64,000 bases of DNA from an uncultured Lachnospiraceae bacterium (GTDB taxonomy: Bacteria > Bacillota > Clostridia > Lachnospirales > Lachnospiraceae), in NCBI GenBank assembly GCA_944377405.1, contig CALWES010000005.1, forward strand, positions 78,901 through 142,900, in the 5' to 3' direction. Below are positions 22,899 through 61,625 of this stretch, one piece after another; the first letter of the stretch is position 1, and every line of letters begins with the position of its first letter. The position numbers and the translations under genes are program-made. Below the pieces are notes generated by a model. It saw only the letters and a list, made by a program, of their open reading frames with translations, did not search any database and was not told the DNA's origin.

Positions 22899-22927
22899 TT
22901 GACATTTCCCACAGGGGATGTTAATAT
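22899..22927 (+). promoter_or_regulatory. Sigma-A promoter for rplJ-rplL
   Basis: TTGACA, 17 nt spacer, TAATAT. Confidence 0.6.
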
Positions 22928-22933
22928 ATAAAA

Positions 22934-23096
22934 GTTATAACTGCCGAAGACAGCAGGTGGCGTAAGCCGTAAGTGGAAACGCCTGCCGAGGACATAACTC
23001 ATACGAGAGATGATGACTGCCCTCCGTGCTTTGGCCCGGAGGGTGTCTTTTGTTAGAACGCAGTTATACTTCTATAATAAAACAGGAGGTATAAAC
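22934..23096 (+). promoter_or_regulatory. rplJ (L10) ribosomal-protein leader with attenuator hairpin
   Basis: ~160-nt structured leader between the promoter and rplJ. Contains a CCCTCCG...CGGAGGG hairpin (23020-23043) followed by TGTCTTTTGTT. Position and layout match the Firmicute L10 leader. Confidence 0.6.
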
Positions 23097-24295: not shown

Positions 24296-24874
24296 ATGAA
24301 GAAAAGACTTATCGTAACAGGACTTGTGGCAGGCGCACTGGCGGCAGCGGCAGCCATGACGGCAGTGGCAGCGGAGATCAGCGGGGACCGGGCCATGGAG
24401 ATCGCCCTGCAGCATGCTGAGGTCTCAGAGGAAAAGGTGCTCTTCAGCAAAGTGGAGAAGGACTGGGATGACGGACGGATGAGCTACGAGGTGGAGTTCC
24501 TGACGGAGGAAGGAAAGGAATATGACTATGAGATCGCCGCGGCAGACGGAAGAGTCCTGAGCTATGACTATGACGCAGAAGCCTATGGCGACCGGGACCG
24601 GGAGAGAAATCGGAAGCAGGACCGGAAGGACCGGGGAGCTGTCTCTGTGGCAAAGGAGGATCTGCTCTCAAGGGATGAGGCCCGGAAAAAGATCCTCGAC
24701 CATGCAAAGCTTTCTGCAGATGACGTGGAATTTGTGATGATCGAGTCGGATTGGGACGACGGCAGAGCAGTTTATGAGGGAAAATTCTATTACGACCGTA
24801 TGGAATACGAGTTCGAGATGGACGCCTCCACAGGTAAGATCCTGGAATTTGACGTAGAGAGCATTTACGACTGA
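24296..24874 (+). CDS. Secreted/anchored protein with two PepSY domains
   Basis: Signal/anchor MKKRLIVTGLVAGALAAAAAM. Two repeats of the A..IAL.HA....v.f.k.E.DwDDGr..YEvEF....EYdyEIda.tG.iL pattern. Confidence 0.8.
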   Translation: MKKRLIVTGLVAGALAAAAAMTAVAAEISGDRAMEIALQHAEVSEEKVLFSKVEKDWDDGRMSYEVEFLTEEGKEYDYEIAAADGRVLSYDYDAEAYGDRDRERNRKQDRKDRGAVSVAKEDLLSRDEARKKILDHAKLSADDVEFVMIESDWDDGRAVYEGKFYYDRMEYEFEMDASTGKILEFDVESIYD

Positions 24875-24908
24875 TGGCAATGGACCATTAAAGGATGAAG
24901 GAAAAGAA

Positions 24909-24936
24909 CGCCGGGGCAGCTGCCCCGGCGTTTTGT
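24909..24936 (+). terminator. Rho-independent terminator after the PepSY gene
   Basis: CGCCGGGGC-AGCT-GCCCCGGCG hairpin followed by TTTT. Confidence 0.85.
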
Positions 24937-24937
24937 G

Positions 24938-24966
24938 ATGACTTTTTTCCTGCGGGATGGTATAAT
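24938..24966 (+). promoter_or_regulatory. Promoter-like element for the thioredoxin-fold gene
   Basis: ATGACT, 17 nt spacer, TATAAT preceded by TGg (extended -10). Confidence 0.45.
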
Positions 24967-25020
24967 ATTGCCTCAGTGAGGAGAAAACAAATGTTAATTT
25001 TTTAAAAGGAGTGAAAACTT

Positions 25021-25305
25021 ATGAGAAAAGTCATTTTATACGGTACCGGTACGTGAGGCGGCTGCCCCGCAGTGAAAGAGGTTCTTTCCGAAAACAACAT
25101 CAAGTACATGTACATGGACGTCTGCGAGAGCGTAGGGAAGCTGAAGCAGTTTCTGACCATCCGGGACACGGATCCGGCCTTCGAGGAGGTACGGAAGGAG
25201 CACAGGGTGGGGATCCCCTGTCTTGTGATCGATAATGATGTGATCCTGGTCCAGGGAGCGGATCATGCCCGGGAACTGGTGGAAAAATACCAGTTAAAGG
25301 GTTAA
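25021..25305 (+). CDS. Glutaredoxin/NrdH/thioredoxin-like protein with in-frame UGA (candidate selenoprotein, U-G-G-C motif); alternatively a pseudogene
   Basis: AAGGAG RBS 8 nt before ATG 25021. The frame is continuous with the 25072 ORF through TGA 25054-25056. Sec falls at the first position of the CxxC site. Thioredoxin-fold features KVILYG and GIPCLVID are present. Confidence 0.6.
25070..25090 (+). promoter_or_regulatory. Candidate bacterial SECIS hairpin
   Basis: G25072-C25089, bulged U25073, GAAAGA/UCUUUC stem, GGU apical loop 26-28 nt from the U of UGA. Confidence 0.45.
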
Positions 25306-25373: not shown

Positions 25374-25436
25374 TAAAAGCGGGTGTGGGCGGAGAAAAAG
25401 AAAAAACGCCTGAACAGACACCCGAAGGAGGAAAAT

Positions 25437-26540
25437 ATGAGAAAAGTATTCCAGACAGCACTTTGTGCGGCTGTAGCTGCATCCATGCTTGCAGCATGCG
25501 GCTCCAGCGAGGAAGCAACTACCACTGCGGCAGCGTCAGCTGAGGAGACCGCTGCAGAGGGTGCGGAAGCATCTGCTGAAGGTGAGACCACTGCAGAGCT
25601 GAAGAAGCTGGACAAGCTGATGGTCAGCTTCGTTCCTTCCCGTGAGCCGGAGGAGATCGTTACGGCAACGGAGCCTCTGAAGCAGCTTCTGAAGGATGAA
25701 ATGAAGAACCAGGGCTATGATGTGGGAGAAGTAGAGATCTCCGTCGGCACCAGCTACGAGGCAGTTGGTGAGGCCCTTACTGCAGGTACCACGGATGTGG
25801 GACTGATCCCGGGCGGCACCTATGTGCTCTATCAGGACGGCGCAGATGTTATCCTGACTGCAACCCGTGACGGACTCAGCATCGATTCCGATGATCCGAA
25901 GGTATGGAACGAGAATAAGCCCACCGAGGCTTCCACAGATCAGGTTACCTATTACCGTGCCCTTATGATCGCAGGCCCCTCCGAGAAAGGTCAGGAGCTT
26001 GGCGCCAAGGTCAACGCCGGTGAGGAGCTTACCTGGGATGATCTGAACAGCGCTAACTGGGCAGTTATGAACTCTTCCTCCTCTGCAGGATATATCTATC
26101 CCACCATCTGGCTCCAGGACAACTACGGAAAGTCCATTACGGATCTGGCTCACGCAGTGCAGTCTGATTCCTACGGATCTTCCTTTGCAAGACTTGCATC
26201 CGGACAGATCGACATCCTCTGCGTATATGCAGACGGCAGAAGAGACTATGAGGATCAGTGGACCAGCGAGTTCGGACGTTCTGCAAGCATCTGGGACGAG
26301 ACTAACGTGATCGGCGTAACTCCCGGAATCTACAACGACACTGTTTCTGTAAGAAGTGATATGGATGAGGACCTCAAGGAGGCCATTGCCAATGCATTCA
26401 TCAATATCGCTCAGACCGAGGAGGGCAAGCAGGTCATTGCGATCTACAGCCACCAGGGATATCAGAAAGCAAAGGCTGAAGACTACGAGAACGAGAAGAA
26501 GGCTCAGGACATCATTAAGGAGATGCAGGCCGCTAACTAA
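25437..26540 (+). CDS. phnD: PhnD-family (phosphate/phosphite/phosphonate-type) ABC substrate-binding lipoprotein
   Basis: Lipobox MLAAC at ATG 25437, then a Ser/Ala/Glu linker. Core VSFVPSREPEE...GTSYEAVGEAL..G..DVGLIPGGTY is typical of the phosphonate-bd family. Confidence 0.75.
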   Translation: MRKVFQTALCAAVAASMLAACGSSEEATTTAAASAEETAAEGAEASAEGETTAELKKLDKLMVSFVPSREPEEIVTATEPLKQLLKDEMKNQGYDVGEVEISVGTSYEAVGEALTAGTTDVGLIPGGTYVLYQDGADVILTATRDGLSIDSDDPKVWNENKPTEASTDQVTYYRALMIAGPSEKGQELGAKVNAGEELTWDDLNSANWAVMNSSSSAGYIYPTIWLQDNYGKSITDLAHAVQSDSYGSSFARLASGQIDILCVYADGRRDYEDQWTSEFGRSASIWDETNVIGVTPGIYNDTVSVRSDMDEDLKEAIANAFINIAQTEEGKQVIAIYSHQGYQKAKAEDYENEKKAQDIIKEMQAAN

Positions 26541-26612
26541 TCGTTTTGGCAGAAATGGGCAGCTGCGGCAAATCATGCAGCTGCCCTTCTTTTTGATTTT
26601 GGAGGGTAAAGT

Positions 26613-27395
26613 ATGATAGAGTTTGATCACGTATCCAAGGTATATCCCAATGGAGTCAAAGGACTCGACGACGTGACGCTTAAGATCGATCAGGGAGAAT
26701 TTGTAGGGATCATAGGCCTTTCCGGCGCCGGTAAGTCCACCCTGATCCGCACCATCAACAAGATGCACGATATCACCCAGGGCACCCTGACGGTGAACGG
26801 AAAGAATGTATCAGAGCTCAAGGGTAAGGAGCTCCGGAAGTTCCGCAGGGGCATTGGAATGATCTTCCAGTCCTTCAACCTGGTAAACCGTACCACGGTT
26901 ATCAAGAACGTACTGACCGCAAAGGTTCCGGAGATGCCCTTCTGGAGGACCCTGCTGGGGGTATACACCAGGGACGAGAAGCTGGAAGCCCTGGAGAACC
27001 TGGATAAGGTGGGGATCCTGGATAAGGCCTACACCAGAGCAGACCAGCTTTCCGGCGGCCAGCAGCAGCGTGTGGCTCTGGCCAGGACCCTGGCCCAGAA
27101 TCCCAAGATCATTCTGGCGGACGAGCCGGTGGCAGCCCTTGATCCCGTGACCGCAAAGCAGGTCATGGATGACTTCAAGAAGGTAAACCGGGAGATGAAC
27201 ATCTCCATCCTGATCAATATCCATCATGTGGAGCTTGCCCTGGAATACGCAGACCGCATCATCGGTATCCGGGCAGGAAAGATCGTCTATGACGGTCCCT
27301 CTTCCGCCGTGACCCAGGAGGTGCTTGACGAGATCTATAAGGGCGGACAGGAGGAAGCTGCTCCGGTTCCGGAGAACGGGGAAAAGGAGGCCTGA
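26613..27395 (+). CDS. phnC: PhnC-type ABC transporter ATP-binding protein
   Basis: Walker A GLSGAGKST, signature LSGGQQQR, Walker B ILADEP. The N-terminus (IEFDHVSKVYPNG) resembles PhnC. Confidence 0.85.
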   Translation: MIEFDHVSKVYPNGVKGLDDVTLKIDQGEFVGIIGLSGAGKSTLIRTINKMHDITQGTLTVNGKNVSELKGKELRKFRRGIGMIFQSFNLVNRTTVIKNVLTAKVPEMPFWRTLLGVYTRDEKLEALENLDKVGILDKAYTRADQLSGGQQQRVALARTLAQNPKIILADEPVAALDPVTAKQVMDDFKKVNREMNISILINIHHVELALEYADRIIGIRAGKIVYDGPSSAVTQEVLDEIYKGGQEEAAPVPENGEKEA

Positions 27396-28234
27396 TGATG
27401 AACACATCTGAAATGAGCCTTTTTGATAAGATCTTCAAGCCGAAGCCCTATCAGCTGCCCAACGGGAAGGTGAGCTATGAGAGAGCCTCCAGGACTCCCC
27501 TGATCCTTCTCCTGCTTCTGATCATGACGGTGATCTCCGTCAAGGTCACGGGCTTCAGCTTTGAGACCCTGGTAAAGCGCGGACACGAGTTCTTTACCAT
27601 CCTGTTTGCCATGTTTCCGCCCAAGTGGAGCTATCTGAACAGCGTCTGGGGTCCCCTCTTCGATACCATCAAGATGTCCCTGCTGGGATCCTTCATCGGA
27701 TCCGTTCTCTGTGTTCCCTTTGCGGTACTGGCAGCCAACAACATCGTAAAAAACAAACTGGTGCTGGCTGTCACCAAGGTGTTCCTGAGCATCATGCGTA
27801 CCCTGCCCACACTGGTAACGGCCCTGATCGCAACCTACATCTTCGGTCTCGGTACCCTGGCAGGAACCACCGCCATCGCCGTATTTACCTTTGCCTATGT
27901 GGGAAAACAGCTCTACGAGATCATCGATACCGTAGACATGGGAGCCTATGAGGCCTGCGAAGCCATGGGACTTTCCAAGCCCCAGGCCCTCTGGCGCTCC
28001 GTGATGCCCCAGGTCCTTCCCACCTACCTCAGCACCTCCCTGTACTGCTTTGAGGGAAATGTACGTTATGCGGCGATCCTGGGATACGTAGGTGCCGGCG
28101 GACTGGGCCTGATCCTGAACGAGAAGATCGGCTGGAGAGAGTACAGCTCCGTGGGCATGATCCTGATCGTGCTGTTCTTCACGGTAGTCCTGATCGAATA
28201 CATCAGCCACTACATCAGAAGCAAGCTTACATAA
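27395..28234 (+). CDS. phnE: PhnE-type ABC permease (1 of 2)
   Basis: Polytopic. The MRTLPTLV and AAILGYVGAGGLG motifs are characteristic of PhnE. Confidence 0.8.
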   Translation: MMNTSEMSLFDKIFKPKPYQLPNGKVSYERASRTPLILLLLLIMTVISVKVTGFSFETLVKRGHEFFTILFAMFPPKWSYLNSVWGPLFDTIKMSLLGSFIGSVLCVPFAVLAANNIVKNKLVLAVTKVFLSIMRTLPTLVTALIATYIFGLGTLAGTTAIAVFTFAYVGKQLYEIIDTVDMGAYEACEAMGLSKPQALWRSVMPQVLPTYLSTSLYCFEGNVRYAAILGYVGAGGLGLILNEKIGWREYSSVGMILIVLFFTVVLIEYISHYIRSKLT

Positions 28235-28246
28235 GGAGGAACGGCA

Positions 28247-29071
28247 ATGAACAGAGACAGGATTTCAAAAGAAATAGAAGAAACCTATGCAAAGGAGCCA
28301 AAGACCTTTGCCTTAAAGCTGGGGATCGCATTTATCGTGGTACTGCTTCTGGCCTGGTCCTCCTCCACCATGGAGATCGCGGACTCGGGACTGGACGGCA
28401 TGAAGATCGCAGCCGGTATCGTAAATGGTATCTTCCATCCGGATACGGAGCTGCTTTTTGACCCCACCACCCAGGGCGTTGGATATCTGCTTCTGGAGAC
28501 CGTCTGCATCGCCTTTCTCGGCACCATCGTAGGCGCCATCCTGGCAGTGCCCCTGGCCTTTATCTCTGCCACCAACATCGTTCCGAAGCCGGTGGCTGTG
28601 GTAGGCCGTGTCTTCATCATGGCAGTACGTACCATCCCCGCCTTCGTATACGGACTGATGTTCATCCGTGTAACGGGCCCGGGACCCTTCGCGGGACTTC
28701 TGACCATGTCCCTTTGTTCCATCGGCATGGTCTGCAAGATGTATATCGAATATATCGAGGACATGGACACCCGGATCCTGGAGTCCCTGGATGCAGCAGG
28801 CTGCAACCTGTTCCAGAAGATCCGCTACGGCATCCTGCCCCAGCTTTTCCCGGATTTCGTATCCACCATCATTTACCGTTTCGACATCAACCTGAGAGAC
28901 GCTACGGTGCTGGGACTTGTGGGAGCCGGCGGTATCGGTGCGCCTCTGATCTTCGCCATGAACTCCTACCGGTGGAATGAGGTCGGCGCGATCCTCTGCG
29001 GACTGATCGTACTGATCCTGATCATCGAGGTGCTTTCCACAAAGATCAGAACAAAACTTGCAAGAGGATAA
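28247..29071 (+). CDS. phnE: PhnE-type ABC permease (2 of 2)
   Basis: AVRTIPAFVY and ATVLGLVGAGGIG motifs. Paralogue of the preceding gene. Confidence 0.8.
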   Translation: MNRDRISKEIEETYAKEPKTFALKLGIAFIVVLLLAWSSSTMEIADSGLDGMKIAAGIVNGIFHPDTELLFDPTTQGVGYLLLETVCIAFLGTIVGAILAVPLAFISATNIVPKPVAVVGRVFIMAVRTIPAFVYGLMFIRVTGPGPFAGLLTMSLCSIGMVCKMYIEYIEDMDTRILESLDAAGCNLFQKIRYGILPQLFPDFVSTIIYRFDINLRDATVLGLVGAGGIGAPLIFAMNSYRWNEVGAILCGLIVLILIIEVLSTKIRTKLARG

Positions 29072-29073
29072 AC

Positions 29074-30654
29074 ATGAAACGAAAACTGCAGATCTGCTTT
29101 ACATCGGACATCCACGGCTATCTGTATCCTGAGACCTATGCAGATAAGAGCCGGACGCCCCTGGGACTTCTGGCGGGGATGCGCCGCTATAAGAAGGACG
29201 GGAACACCCTGATCCTGGACGGCGGCGACATGCTGCAGGGCTCGGCCCTTGCCATGTACTGCCAGAAGTTCCAAAAGGACCCTTCTGCCCTGGCGGAGGC
29301 CATGAACCGGGCAGGCTATGACTTCGTCACCATTGGAAATCACGATTTCAACTACGGTTATGAATATCTGACCGCTTATCTGCGGAAGCTCAGGGCACAG
29401 GTCCTCTGTGCCAATGTGAAGCTTATGCGGGAGGCGGACCGGGAACTGATCCGGCCCTATGAGATCGTGACCCTGGAAAACGGCCTCAGAGTCGCCGTGA
29501 TCGGCATCGTAACGGACTATGTGAATGTGTGGGAGCAGCCGGAGAACCTGAGGGAGATCCGGGTGACGGATCCCTTTGAGGCACTGAAGGAGGCCCTTTC
29601 CGAGATCGGAGACCGGGCGGACCTTAAGGTCTGTATCTATCACGGAGGCTATGAGGCGGACCTTGCCACAGGCCGGATCCTGAGCACCACCGGAGAGGAC
29701 GTGGGCTATCGGATCTGCAGGGAGCTTCCTCTGGATATCCTGCTGACGGGACATCAGCACATCCCCTTCCCGGGAAAATGGATCAGCGGTACCTATACTG
29801 CCCAGACCCCGGACAAGCTCAGGAGCTTCCTTTCCCTTGAGGCAGAGGTATCTGAGGGGGAACGGAGGCAGCAGGCGGGTTCGGAGGAGCCCTCCGGGCT
29901 CGCCATAAGGGCTGCCCTGATCTCTCCGGAGGTATCGGAGGAAGGGGTGCTGACAGACCGGGAAATGGAAGCCCGGCTGCAGCCTCTGGAGGACCGGGTC
30001 CAGGAATGGCTGGATCAGCCTCTGGGAAGGCTGGACCGTCCTCTGCCGCCGGATACCAAGATCCGCATGGCGGTACAGGGATCGCCCATTGCAGACTTCG
30101 TAAACCAGATCCAGCTGGACTGCAGCAAGGCCCAGATCGCCTGCTGCGGCCTGGCCAATGAACTGGGGGGCTTTGACCGGGAGGTGACCACCCGCTCCGT
30201 CATCGCTTCCTACCCTTATCCCAACACCCTTCTGGTGCTCAGGATCGACGGAGCCACCCTTCGGAAGGCCCTGGAACGGACGGCGGAATATTTTCAGCCG
30301 GATCCGGAAGCAGAAGGGGGGATCCGGGTGGCGGACAGCTTCCTGAAGCCCAAGGTAGAGCACTATAACTACGACTATTTTGCAGGGATCCATTATGTGA
30401 TCGACGCAAAAAAGCCCCAGGGAGAGCGGATCGTCTCCCTGGAGTATGAGGGACGCCCCATAGGGGATACGGATACCTTTACCCTTTGCATCAACAATTA
30501 CCGGGCCTCCGGAGCCGGCGGCTATGAGATGTACCGGGGCCTTCCGGTGCTGCAGGAGATCAACCGGGAGATGACAGAGATCATCATCGACTATCTGGAA
30601 CAGCATCCGGTGGTGGAGGTACCGGAGCAGAAGGCCTATGAGGTGAGATTTTAA
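29074..30654 (+). CDS. Bifunctional metallophosphatase / 5'-nucleotidase-family protein, no signal peptide
   Basis: TSDIHG, GGDMLQG and GNHDFNYG metallophosphoesterase motifs plus a 5'-nucleotidase C-terminal substrate-binding domain. The N-terminus MKRKLQICFT is not a signal sequence. Confidence 0.8.
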   Translation: MKRKLQICFTSDIHGYLYPETYADKSRTPLGLLAGMRRYKKDGNTLILDGGDMLQGSALAMYCQKFQKDPSALAEAMNRAGYDFVTIGNHDFNYGYEYLTAYLRKLRAQVLCANVKLMREADRELIRPYEIVTLENGLRVAVIGIVTDYVNVWEQPENLREIRVTDPFEALKEALSEIGDRADLKVCIYHGGYEADLATGRILSTTGEDVGYRICRELPLDILLTGHQHIPFPGKWISGTYTAQTPDKLRSFLSLEAEVSEGERRQQAGSEEPSGLAIRAALISPEVSEEGVLTDREMEARLQPLEDRVQEWLDQPLGRLDRPLPPDTKIRMAVQGSPIADFVNQIQLDCSKAQIACCGLANELGGFDREVTTRSVIASYPYPNTLLVLRIDGATLRKALERTAEYFQPDPEAEGGIRVADSFLKPKVEHYNYDYFAGIHYVIDAKKPQGERIVSLEYEGRPIGDTDTFTLCINNYRASGAGGYEMYRGLPVLQEINREMTEIIIDYLEQHPVVEVPEQKAYEVRF

Positions 30655-33356: not shown

Positions 33357-34370
33357 ATGAAGATCCTCATCATCTCCGGCTTCCTGGGAGCCGGGAAAAC
33401 CACTTTCATAAAGGAACTGGCAAAGCGTACCGGCAGGGACTTTGCGATCCTGGAGAACGAATACGGAGCCATCGACATCGATGGCTCCCTTCTGAAACAG
33501 GAGAAGGGAGAAAGGGATCTGCGGATCTGGGAGATGACGGAGGGTTGTATCTGCTGCTCCGTAAAATCTGATTTCGCAGGCTCCGTCCTTACCATTGCCA
33601 ATGCCCTGGACCCGGAATATCTGGTGGTGGAGCCCACGGGAGTCGGCATGCTGAGCCGGATCATCGATAACCTGAGGCAGATCCAGTATGACAGGATCAG
33701 CCTTCTGCAGCCCGTAACCGTGGCAGACGCCAGGCATCTGCAGGAGATGCTCCGGGAATATCCGGAGATCTGCCGTGATCAGCTCTCTGCGGCAGGAACG
33801 GTGGCACTCTCCAAATGCGAGGGCATGGCGGAGGAGTCCCTTCGCCCCCTGCTTGAGGAGATCCGCAGGATCGCTCCGAAGGCCCGTGTTACGGAGGGCC
33901 ATTACAGGGACCAGGGAGAGGATTTCTGGAAAGGGCTTCTGGAGCTGTCTCTTTCCGGAGAGGTTATCCCGGAGGCAAAGGCCGGGGAAGAGGAGATGCC
34001 GGAGCATTTTGGCCTGCAGGGTGTCAGACTTCCCGGAGAAACGGAACTTCTGCTGTTCCTGGAGGGACTGGTATCCGGCGTTTTCGGAAGGGTGGCCAGA
34101 GCAAAGGGCTATTTCCCGGCAGGGGAGACCTGGCTTCGCTTTGACGTGGTGGAGGGCCAGTATTCGATTACAGGCTGTCCGCCCATGGAGGACCGGAGGG
34201 CCATATTTATCGGAAAGGATCTGCGGAAGGATCTTCTGAGAGAGGCGCTTTTGCAGGACTTTTTTGACCTTGCTGGCCCGGAGATCTGGCAGAGAAAAAG
34301 AACCCCCGGAAGGCGGCTGTCCGCAGCATCTTTACAAAATCGTAATAAGTTTGTCAGGAAAATGGCTTGA
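33357..34370 (+). CDS. COG0523/CobW-family G3E GTPase (putative metallochaperone)
   Basis: P-loop GFLGAGKTT, metal motif EGCICCS, CobW C-terminal domain. Confidence 0.85.
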   Translation: MKILIISGFLGAGKTTFIKELAKRTGRDFAILENEYGAIDIDGSLLKQEKGERDLRIWEMTEGCICCSVKSDFAGSVLTIANALDPEYLVVEPTGVGMLSRIIDNLRQIQYDRISLLQPVTVADARHLQEMLREYPEICRDQLSAAGTVALSKCEGMAEESLRPLLEEIRRIAPKARVTEGHYRDQGEDFWKGLLELSLSGEVIPEAKAGEEEMPEHFGLQGVRLPGETELLLFLEGLVSGVFGRVARAKGYFPAGETWLRFDVVEGQYSITGCPPMEDRRAIFIGKDLRKDLLREALLQDFFDLAGPEIWQRKRTPGRRLSAASLQNRNKFVRKMA

Positions 34371-60192: not shown

Positions 60193-60220
60193 ACCATCCG
60201 CAGTCAATCAAATAGGAATT

Positions 60221-60326
60221 CCTTGTTCAGAGTGATGGAGGTACAGAGGACCTGTGAAGTCACGGCAACCCCGCAGCCTGCGGAAGGTGCCCGCCTGAGC
60301 GAAGCAGTATGTTTCGAACAACAAGG
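60221..60326 (+). promoter_or_regulatory. SAM-I (S-box) riboswitch aptamer
   Basis: P1 CCTTGTT/AACAAGG. Conserved CAGAG, GGAGG, GAAG...GGCAACC, P3 hairpin CCGCAG-CC-TGCGG and AAGGTGCC. Lies upstream of metK. Confidence 0.85.
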
Positions 60327-60342
60327 TTGAAGAGAAAGATTC

Positions 60343-60376
60343 AACGCCGTGTTCGATGGAACGCGGCGTTTTTTTG
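60343..60376 (+). terminator. Riboswitch expression-platform terminator
   Basis: AACGCCGTG...CGCGGCGTT hairpin followed by TTTTTT. Confidence 0.85.
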
Positions 60377-60422
60377 GAATTCCGGGCTGGAAACAGCAGT
60401 TACAGATGAAAAAGGAGGCTTT

Positions 60423-61625
60423 ATGAACAAAGAGAGACGTTTGTTTACATCCGAGAGCGTAACGGAAGGACATCCCGACAAGATCTGCGACCAGATCTCA
60501 GACGCGATCCTGGACGCCCTTCTGGCAGAGGATCCCATGAGCCGGGTGGCCTGCGAGACCGCCTGCACCACGGGACTCGTGCTGGTGATGGGAGAGGTGA
60601 CCACCCACGCCTATGCGGATATCCAGAAGATCGTAAGGGAGACGGTCCGGGAGATCGGTTATGACAGAGCAAAGTACGGCTTTGACTGTGATACCTGCGG
60701 CGTGATCGTCAGTCTGGATGAACAGTCCGGAGACATCGCCATGGGAGTGGATCACTCCCTGGAGGCAAAGGAAAACAAGATGACCGAGGAGGAGATCGAC
60801 GATATCGGCGCCGGCGACCAGGGCATGATGTTCGGCTATGCCTGCAATGAGACCCCGGAGCTGATGCCCTATCCCATCATGCTGGCCCACAAGCTCACCA
60901 GACAGCTGTCCAGGGTCCGGAAGGACGGTACCCTGAAGTACCTGCGTCCTGACGGAAAGTCCCAGGTAACGGTGGAGTACGATGAGAACGACAGGCCCAT
61001 CCGCCTGGAGGCAGTGGTGCTGTCCACCCAGCATAACCCGGAGATCACCCACGAGCAGATCGAGGAGGACATCCGGAAATATGTATTCGATCCCATTCTG
61101 CCGAAGGATATGATCGACGAAAATACGAAGTTCTTTATCAACCCCACAGGCCGCTTCGTCATCGGAGGACCCCAGGGCGATTCCGGACTGACAGGCCGGA
61201 AGCTCATCGTGGATACCTACGGCGGATTTGCCCGCCACGGCGGCGGCGCATTCTCCGGAAAGGACCCCACAAAGGTGGACCGTACCGCCTGCTATGCAGC
61301 CCGCTACGCGGCAAAGAACATCGTGGCGGCAGGCCTTGCAGACCGCTGTGAGATCCAGCTGAGCTATGCCATCGGCGTAGCCCACCCCACCTCCATCATG
61401 GTGGACACCTTCGGTACCGGAAAGGTAAGCGACGCAAAGCTGACCCAGGCCCTGCGGAAGGTATTCGACTTCCGCCCGGCAGGCATGATCCGGATGCTGG
61501 ACCTCAGAAGGCCCATCTACAAGCAGACGGCGGCCTATGGCCACTTCGGAAGGACGGACATCGACCTCCCCTGGGAGCGCACGGATAAAACAGAGGAACT
61601 GAAGAAGGCGGTTGCAGAATCATGA
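60423..61625 (+). CDS. metK: S-adenosylmethionine synthetase
   Basis: [38 protein letters not shown] and [15 protein letters not shown] motifs. ATG 60423 follows AAAGGAGG. Confidence 0.97.

Follow-up and report, generated by a model that had tools for sequence, protein, structure and literature searches.

Glutaredoxins that carry selenocysteine (Sec, U) in the redox motif are listed as 'Glutaredoxin (Grx), PF00462, UxxC' among the experimentally verified prokaryotic selenoprotein families (PMC13188914, Table 1). A clostridial representative, cGrx1 of Clostridium (Alkaliphilus) oremlandii OhILAs (PDB 7c10, 7c12 and 7c13; Kim et al. 2011, cited through PMC7642778 and PMC4479559), naturally contains Sec, in a U(C)PXC site (PMC7642778), and reduces the selenoprotein MsrA (PMC7642778; PMC4479559). 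The RNA signal for Sec insertion in bacteria is captured by the bacterial Sec insertion sequence (bSECIS) model, which calls for an apical loop of 3-9 nt, a stem of 4-16 bp, a spacing of 16-37 nt and a minimum free energy at or below -7.5 kcal/mol; the loop has a G as its first or second nucleotide, usually with G or U after it (PMC13188914). Against this background, we analyzed a 64,000-nt stretch from an uncultured Lachnospiraceae bacterium (contig CALWES010000005.1, positions 78,901 to 142,900; hereafter the window), in which positions 25021-25305 very probably form one gene for a 94-residue glutaredoxin-fold thiol/selenol-disulfide oxidoreductase with Sec as its attacking residue (U12-G-G-C15). 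The frame is continuous and conserved, its TGA falls in a column that holds either Sec or Cys, a downstream hairpin is constrained at the RNA level and the product has a Grx fold.

Judged from sequence, the TGA 'stop' of this small redox-protein gene almost certainly encodes Sec. The locus is a mis-annotated selenoprotein gene and a member of the known Sec-glutaredoxin kind, within an uncurated subfamily. It adds a predicted selenoprotein to those of the gut Clostridia, namely Negativibacillus and its relatives. No concept is changed by this, because Sec-glutaredoxins, UxxC motifs and the truncation of selenoprotein genes by gene callers are already well documented.

The reading frame and its relatives

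Translation from the ATG at 25021 yields MRKVILYGTGT, the TGA at 25054-25056 and then GGCPAVKEVLSENN…VGIPCLVID…KG, a frame that runs uninterrupted past the GTG at 25072 save for that one codon. The initial annotation, made from the letters of the window alone, had described this arrangement, including the junction with the open reading frame (ORF) called from GTG 25072, and all of its elements are read in the sequence down to the TAA at 25303-25305. It had also held that this GTG has no ribosome-binding site of its own, in agreement with the lack of a conserved Shine-Dalgarno (SD) sequence there. Its placement of the upstream AAGGAG at 25007-25012 with an 8-nt spacer needs correction to 25006-25011 and 9 nt. 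An AGGAG- or GGAG-type motif is found at the matching place in nearly all homologous loci. Because gene callers halt at the UGA and restart at GTG 25072, the gene is represented in public databases by a 77-78-aa 'hypothetical protein', as which the Negativibacillus massiliensis orthologue is also listed at NCBI (78 aa; CDA78663.1 and others); no correctly annotated full-length record was found when X-substituted versions were looked up in the protein collection. The features of the gene are as follows:

25006 to 25011, plus strand: ribosome-binding site AAGGAG, read directly, with a 9-nt spacer to the ATG at 25021
25021 to 25305, plus strand: full coding sequence of the predicted 94-aa glutaredoxin-like selenoprotein, translation MRKVILYGTGT-U-GGCP…, stop TAA included
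25054 to 25056, plus strand: UGA, by comparison of the Sec/Cys column the predicted codon of Sec at residue 12, which is the attacking position in the redox motif U-G-G-C
25063 to 25065, plus strand: TGC codon for Cys15, the resolving residue of UxxC, which does not vary among the Sec forms examined
25072 to 25089, plus strand: candidate SECIS core hairpin with stem 25074-25079/25083-25088, loop GGU 25080-25082, an optional pair G25072-C25089 and a bulged U25073
25141 to 25167, plus strand: family-specific LKxFLxxRD motif (L41-D49), within a two-helix insertion at about residues 38-59, which separates the family from cGrx1
25210 to 25221, plus strand: G-I-P-C element, residues 64-67, which includes the cis-Pro of the thioredoxin fold (presumably in the cis conformation) and lies right ahead of beta3

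Of the 29 proteins recovered in a first homology search, one is a 95-aa Cys form, and nearly all have a called length of 77-78 aa and start with MKEVLSEN. We inspected the DNA that precedes the truncated calls in metagenome contigs (L001-L006) and in 11 GTDB genomes, which include Negativibacillus massiliensis and Ruminococcaceae, Oscillospiraceae and Clostridiales metagenome-assembled genomes, and ran a local tblastn over all loci collected. Twelve close lineages display a ribosome-binding site and ATG, the 11 codons MRK(I/V)(I/V)L(Y/F)GT(G/S)(T/S), the TGA and then G-x-C-P. TGA also occupies this column in each of eight diverged forms (truncated or with W) whose identity to the window protein is 31-56%; these have the motif U-(P/G/A)-(G/D/N)-C and, ahead of it, an ATG preceded by a ribosome-binding site; one locus (L033) holds a second copy of the gene, also with TGA. 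The column is TGC in the Cys form L007/P0003 and TGT or TGC in the tandem Cys paralogues of L012, L001 and L014. Hence, the alignment of full-length homologues suggested by the initial annotation gives a column with TGC/TGT in Cys forms and TGA in Sec forms, the latter in at least 20 other lineages that span 31-76% protein identity.

At closer range, all six conspecific contigs checked keep the TGA and differ from the window by synonymous changes only; the Cys15 codon, whose residue is nearly invariant among 49 Cys forms, shows a synonymous TGC/TGT polymorphism between such contigs. The exact 77-aa fragment is present in 129 blocks of the public collection. Codons 2-11, ahead of the TGA, have mean identities of 0.88/0.97/0.60 at their positions 1/2/3, which indicates that the region before the TGA is translated. 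The codon at the presumed downstream start encodes Ala in L028 (GCC) and L029 (GCA), making the truncated gene model impossible in these two loci. Several full-length public versions carry Trp at the Sec position (P0045, P0054, P0086, P0088, P0093, P0103, P0108, P0109 and P0113-P0115). As the DNA there, checked in L028-L030, is TGA, these versions are gene-caller artefacts, the callers having evidently switched to a TGA=Trp translation table on short contigs. A Trp aligned to a redox Cys column could thus flag missed selenoproteins.

With Cys in place of Sec, the 94-aa product matches the Pfam Glutaredoxin model PF00462 at 32.9 bits (cutoff 22.9); the match spans residues 4-75 and all 60 positions of the profile, so that the N-terminal 17 residues dropped by gene callers are part of the domain. 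The threshold of this model is passed by 46 of the 49 Cys-form relatives, and the full-length Cys homologues P0003 and L001:6449-6736 align with the product end to end. The called 77-aa ORF product, without beta1 and the entire redox motif, has no precomputed Pfam match. Among NCBIfam models, the window protein scores 35.4 bits against YruB TIGR02196 (cutoff 88.55), 15.2 against NrdH TIGR02194 (85.75) and 25.1 against Uxx-star NF041212 (66), and an NCBIfam scan of the 49 full-length Cys-form relatives likewise brought none to a cutoff (YruB scores 35-42 versus 88.55). Because no NCBIfam model captures the family, a dedicated Sec-aware hidden Markov model would correct many records at once.

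The AlphaFold2 model of the Cys form P0003, a homologue 64% identical to the window protein, has a predicted local distance difference test (pLDDT) score of 94.4. It comprises strands at residues 4-8, 30-33, 67-70 and 73-76 and helices at 15-24, 38-50, 52-59 and 80-89, in the order beta1-alpha1-beta2-(alpha2-alpha2')-beta3-beta4-alpha3, where the C/UxxC motif sits at the N-terminal end of helix 1 and the Pro precedes beta3; the helices 38-50 and 52-59 lie in the insertion region, and beta3 begins at residue 67. In a Foldseek search of this model against the PDB, all top matches are glutaredoxins, including 7c10, 'Dithiol cGrx1', with a template modelling (TM) score of 0.79. The thioredoxin-fold assignment of the initial annotation (beta1, UxxC at the CxxC position, cis-Pro) is thereby borne out by the Pfam match and the high-confidence model of the Cys-form homologue. 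Within the insertion, all 49 Cys forms share R48, and conservation reaches at least 90% at L45 and D49; the L and R of LKxFLxxRD show no variation in 32 truncated forms that are diverged. Family-wide, G64 does not vary, and P66 is conserved to at least 90%. When 1.84 billion representatives (at 50% identity) were searched with a profile, 399 relatives with E up to 1e-3 were recovered. Motif classes were assigned for the best 146 of these, among which at least about 40 are likely Sec forms:

CxxC: 52 of the best 146 relatives
CxxT: 16 of the best 146 relatives
WxxC, with TGA read as Trp: 9 of the best 146 relatives
N-terminally truncated: 52 of the best 146 relatives, 33 beginning exactly at V/M-K-E-x-L-S

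The hairpin downstream of the UGA

The stem G25074-A25079 pairs with U25083-C25088 (GAAAGA-GGU-UCUUUC) around the loop G25080-G25081-U25082. The hairpin is as the initial annotation had drawn it, with a GAAAGA/UCUUUC stem, a bulged U25073 and a GGU loop 26-28 nt from the UGA, in keeping with the spacing and G-containing loop of bacterial SECIS elements. Counted from U25054, the loop starts at 26 nt, with 23 nt between A25056 and G25080. In the terms of the bSECIS model, it combines a 3-nt, G-first loop, a 6-bp stem (7 bp in many relatives) and a spacing of 23 nt. The motif occurs once in the window.

Conservation sets this element apart from its coding surroundings. The UGA-to-hairpin spacing is identical, with zero indels, in 19 of 19 aligned Sec forms, and the 17-nt sequence GTGAAAGAGGTTCTTTC does not differ between the close lineages at any codon position. 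Each of codons 18-22 is represented by a single codon (5/5), as against 1/22 of the other amino-acid-invariant degenerate codons (Fisher p = 7.4e-5), with other conserved residues in the close lineages using 2-4 codons. The frozen codons therefore point to a constraint at the RNA level above the coding constraint. Across the 19 Sec forms, 93% of cells pair, which none of 500 shuffles reaches, and pairing is poorer in slid registers; covariation scores 0.142 versus 0.069, a value that likewise none of the 500 shuffles attains, with double compensatory changes in 2/6 pairs. The changes that keep or extend the stem are:

L031 and L033: the loop-closing pair A-U becomes C-G
L029: the G-C pair at the base of the stem becomes A-U
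L030: an A-U pair becomes G.U
Seventh pair, which covaries: C-G in L029, U.G in the second copy of L033 (L033b), U-A in L025 and many others

The apical loops of relatives are GUU, GGC, GGA, AGUU or GGCU, next to the GGU of the window, and all have a G within the first two positions. The orthologue-like Cys form L007 has no hairpin.

By the established bacterial Sec pathway, the UGA at 25054 would be decoded by Sec-tRNA(Sec), brought by SelB-GTP that would be tethered to the mRNA hairpin 25072-25089 through the GGU loop. By analogy with cGrx1, the selenolate of U12 would then attack an oxidised substrate, for instance a disulfide in a protein, a sulfenic acid or a selenenic acid, after which Cys15 would resolve the mixed Se-S intermediate into an intramolecular selenenylsulfide, to be recycled by a reductant.

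Alternative explanations and gene neighbourhood

Several observations weigh against decoding of the UGA as Sec. Neither the 64-kb window nor some 128 kb of sequence from related loci contains selA, selB, selD or tRNA-Sec: ARAGORN detected no tRNA in the window, NCBIfam scans of 40 window proteins detected no SelA, SelB or SelD, and tRNA and Rfam scans of the related loci detected only one tRNA-Leu. The hairpin alone folds at -3.6 kcal/mol against the -7.5 criterion, and the 42-nt region from the UGA reaches -9.2 only with the inclusion of an unrelated 5' mini-hairpin. It is no more stable than shuffled sequences (z = 0.22 in a 42-nt and 0.49 in a 57-nt context); since its thermodynamics are unexceptional, its significance lies in conservation and not in energy. 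The covariation amounts to only 3 double-change cells, and a control slid by -2 gives similar covariation counts in this A/U-rich stem. The diverged L028 and L032 need a register-shifted hairpin, and the tandem Cys paralogues keep a weak remnant of it, so that a lack of the hairpin in Cys forms is not absolute. Finally, conservation of the VKEVLS peptide could partly reflect constraint on the protein, which leaves the frozen third positions unexplained. Indirect support in favour of Sec decoding comes from N. massiliensis, which carries an orthologue of the gene (L010) and for which corrected selenoproteins SaoX and SaoT have been reported (10.1101/2022.07.06.499078).

A recent TGC-to-TGA nonsense mutation in this strain, turning an ordinary CxxC glutaredoxin-like gene into a pseudogene, would fit the existence of Cys-form homologues with TGC or TGT, the single transition that separates these codons from TGA and the lack of Sec machinery in the window. 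We give it practically no credence, as the same TGA recurs in 20 or more independent lineages, with protein identities as low as 31%, and is not confined to one recent clone, is present in every conspecific contig examined, is flanked on both sides by sequence under purifying selection with synonymous-only polymorphism and is accompanied by the nucleotide-frozen hairpin. Correspondingly, the situation that the initial annotation had named as damaging to its proposal, with TGC in relatives and TGA in this strain alone, is contradicted by the 12 close and 8 diverged lineages and the six conspecific contigs, in which the hairpin is kept alongside the TGA. The related scenario of a genuine Sec gene stranded after its lineage lost the Sec-insertion machinery, and now non-functional, draws on the dynamic nature of bacterial Sec utilization (PMC13188914) and on the fact that the machinery was not located in the 64-kb window searched. 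Decay would be expected after such a loss, whereas in conspecific contigs from many samples the frame is intact, TGA and hairpin are retained and all differences are synonymous, and we regard this scenario as very improbable.

Gene callers in effect propose that the UGA closes an 11-residue leader peptide and that the functional protein is the 77-aa product from GTG 25072; the N. massiliensis orthologue is deposited at NCBI in this form, and most Sec forms have a V/M codon (GTG or ATG) at the position of 25072. That codon is, however, accounted for by its place at the base of the hairpin, lacks a conserved SD sequence and is GCC or GCA (Ala) in L028/L029. The 'leader' aligns residue by residue with the N-terminus of the Cys forms, and the 77-aa piece, devoid of beta1 and the redox motif, has no Pfam match whereas the full-length product passes PF00462. 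The chance that homologues genuinely begin downstream, which the initial annotation had also considered, fails on the same grounds, with Cys forms aligning across the TGA and the Pfam match requiring residues 4-75, and we consider a leader peptide highly unlikely. Comparably little weight attaches to decoding of the UGA as a residue other than Sec, through a reassigned code (TGA = Trp or Gly) or near-cognate Trp/Cys read-through. The database versions with W at the column (P0045, P0054 and the nine WxxC representatives) seem to speak for it, but these are artefacts over TGA DNA. TGA ends 12 of 41 family-supported window genes and is internal in 0 of 41, which marks the genetic code as standard and excludes reassignment. 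In addition, Trp at the position of the CxxC nucleophile would be catalytically dead, the column alternates with Cys only, and conservation of a G-loop hairpin at the SECIS distance is a specific mark of Sec decoding. Accordingly, we retain Sec as the predicted residue at position 12.

A promoter-like site and a G+C-rich hairpin (24907-24932), downstream of the preceding PepSY-domain gene, precede the selenoprotein gene:

24938 to 24966, plus strand: promoter-like site ATGACT-17 nt-TATAAT with an upstream TG, 10/12 matches in a consensus scan, a pattern match only

This site lies about 55 nt upstream of the start codon and suggests that the gene has its own promoter. In the window, the gene is located between rplL/PepSY and a phosphonate-type ABC transporter; in other genera it has different neighbours, e.g., RNase Y or a MurD-like gene. 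As neighbourhoods differ between genera, gene context gives no clue to the substrate. The PepSY-domain protein (24296-24874; 192 aa), encoded after rplL and ahead of the selenoprotein gene, matches no NCBIfam model and has an N-terminus that resembles a signal sequence; its gene is absent from the gene calls of the conspecific contig L023. Immediately downstream, 25383-29071 and 29074-30654 encode a phosphonate/phosphite-type ABC transporter (substrate-binding protein, ATPase and two permeases) and a 5'-nucleotidase. A functional link to this transporter was considered and rejected: the substrate-binding protein scores only 36 bits against the 250 of a 'putative selenate' family, and the neighbourhood is not conserved in other genera. 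A CobW-like GTPase (33357-34370) scores 73 bits against the 180-bit cutoff of a 'CobW-related selenoprotein' family; it is presumably a Cys form with no evident selenium link. A scan of the window for TGA-bridged ORFs gave only off-frame artefacts besides 25021-25305, and hence no second selenoprotein gene. In the Rfam scan of the window, only a SAM riboswitch and an L10 leader were detected, both ordinary: the former (60220-60327; 73 bits) lies directly upstream of metK (60309-61625) and the latter (22926-23058; 68.5 bits) upstream of rplJ. A PhotoRC-I match in a permissive Rfam scan of the locus is at chance level (E = 2.5) and was discarded.

The window has the Sec copy only, with no tandem Cys paralogue. 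In several Negativibacillus-like genomes, the Sec form is followed about 200 nt downstream by a full-length Cys paralogue (TPTCKDCPP…AKAVLEEN), as in these tandem Sec/Cys pairs:

L001: 5950-6237 and 6449-6736
L012: 3011-3298 and 3490-3777
L014: 5699-5986 and 6198-6485

Gene conversion between the paralogues was considered and set aside, nucleotide identity being even along the gene at 67-70%, and this evenness indicates an old duplication that has been retained. Sec/Cys isoenzyme pairs are known in methanogens, and the tandem genes may be a Sec/Cys backup pair. Two further arrangements were seen. The more distant genome of L033 (GCA_002754915.1) has two tandem Sec-form copies (1459-1704 and 1716-1976), each with its own TGA and GAAAGC-GGA-GCUUUC hairpin, of which the second was called as a 52-aa fragment. 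P0005, a 78-aa fragment from a 561-nt ENA contig, joins a Sec-type N-terminal part, MKEVLSENNIKYMYVDICESVGKLKQFLKIRDT…, to 48 C-terminal residues identical to the L012 Cys paralogue, and is either an assembly chimera or a natural recombinant of the tandem copies.

Comparison with known selenoproteins and SECIS elements

Among characterised proteins, cGrx1 is the nearest relative of the window protein, which on sequence comparison belongs to a distinct subfamily. Both are small single-domain Grx folds from Clostridia with Sec first in a UxxC motif directly after beta1; the TM score of the P0003 model is normalised to 7c10, and 7c10 is also the top PDB match by sequence (E = 8.5e-6). Sequence identity between the two is about 29%. 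Compared with cGrx1, the window family has about 13 additional residues, seen as a 13-residue gap in the 7c10 alignment, which supply a second helix between beta2 and beta3 and the LKxFLxxRD motif. cGrx1 is a compact Grx of about 84 aa without insertions and with a U-P-x-C motif (U-P-H-C), where the window protein and its close clade have U-G-G-C and diverged members U-P-G/D-C. The partner of cGrx1 is the selenoprotein MsrA, and no msrA was found among the window genes scanned against NCBIfam. Sec incorporation and activity of cGrx1 are reported from experiment, whereas the window protein is known from sequence only.

The two proteins also share the peptide after the active site, VKEFLSENN in cGrx1 (7c10, which reads TCPHCFTVKEFLSENNVEF) and VKEVLSENN in the window, where this stretch encodes the SECIS hairpin. 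For cGrx1 only the protein sequence enters the comparison, and the common peptide suggests a shared UxxC-SECIS module. A broader proposal, which we put forward tentatively as possible but somewhat doubtful, is that the LKxFLxxRD Grx-like proteins form a sizeable uncurated subfamily with frequent Sec/Cys interchange, that the SECIS module with VKE(V/F/A)LS is ancient and shared with cGrx1, and that the tandem pairs serve as a backup against varying selenium availability. If so, the subfamily would offer a natural system for the study of Sec/Cys exchange and of minimal SECIS needs in gut Clostridia.

Beyond cGrx1, the window protein resembles the Grx selenoprotein family of PMC13188914 in passing the PF00462 gathering score, in having UxxC with Sec first and in its abundant Cys-form homologues. 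The example in that catalogue is a Geobacter-type Grx, in contrast to the window subfamily, which has no NCBIfam model and an orthologue deposited in truncated form. The best NCBIfam matches, YruB (TIGR02196) and the Uxx-star families (NF041212, NF041114 and NF041211), are small clostridial-type Grx-like proteins with an N-terminal CxxC or Uxx; the Uxx-star proteins end right after the Uxx motif, whereas the window protein has an internal UxxC, and the scores are far below cutoff.

The hairpin, in turn, is comparable with the E. coli fdhF-type SECIS and the bSECISearch consensus in being a coding-region hairpin 3' of the UGA, at a spacing of 16-37 nt, with a small loop starting GG-U and possibly a bulged U. 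The fdhF SECIS has a GGUC loop and a bulged U, and the loop of the window hairpin is about 5 nt further from the UGA than that of fdhF. Relative to the fdhF type, the stem of the window family is shorter (6-7 bp), A/U-rich and much weaker (-3.6 to -6.9 kcal/mol). A very short A/U-rich hairpin with a GGU loop would thus be the conserved SECIS core in Negativibacillus and its relatives and an example of a minimal SECIS beside the fdhF type.

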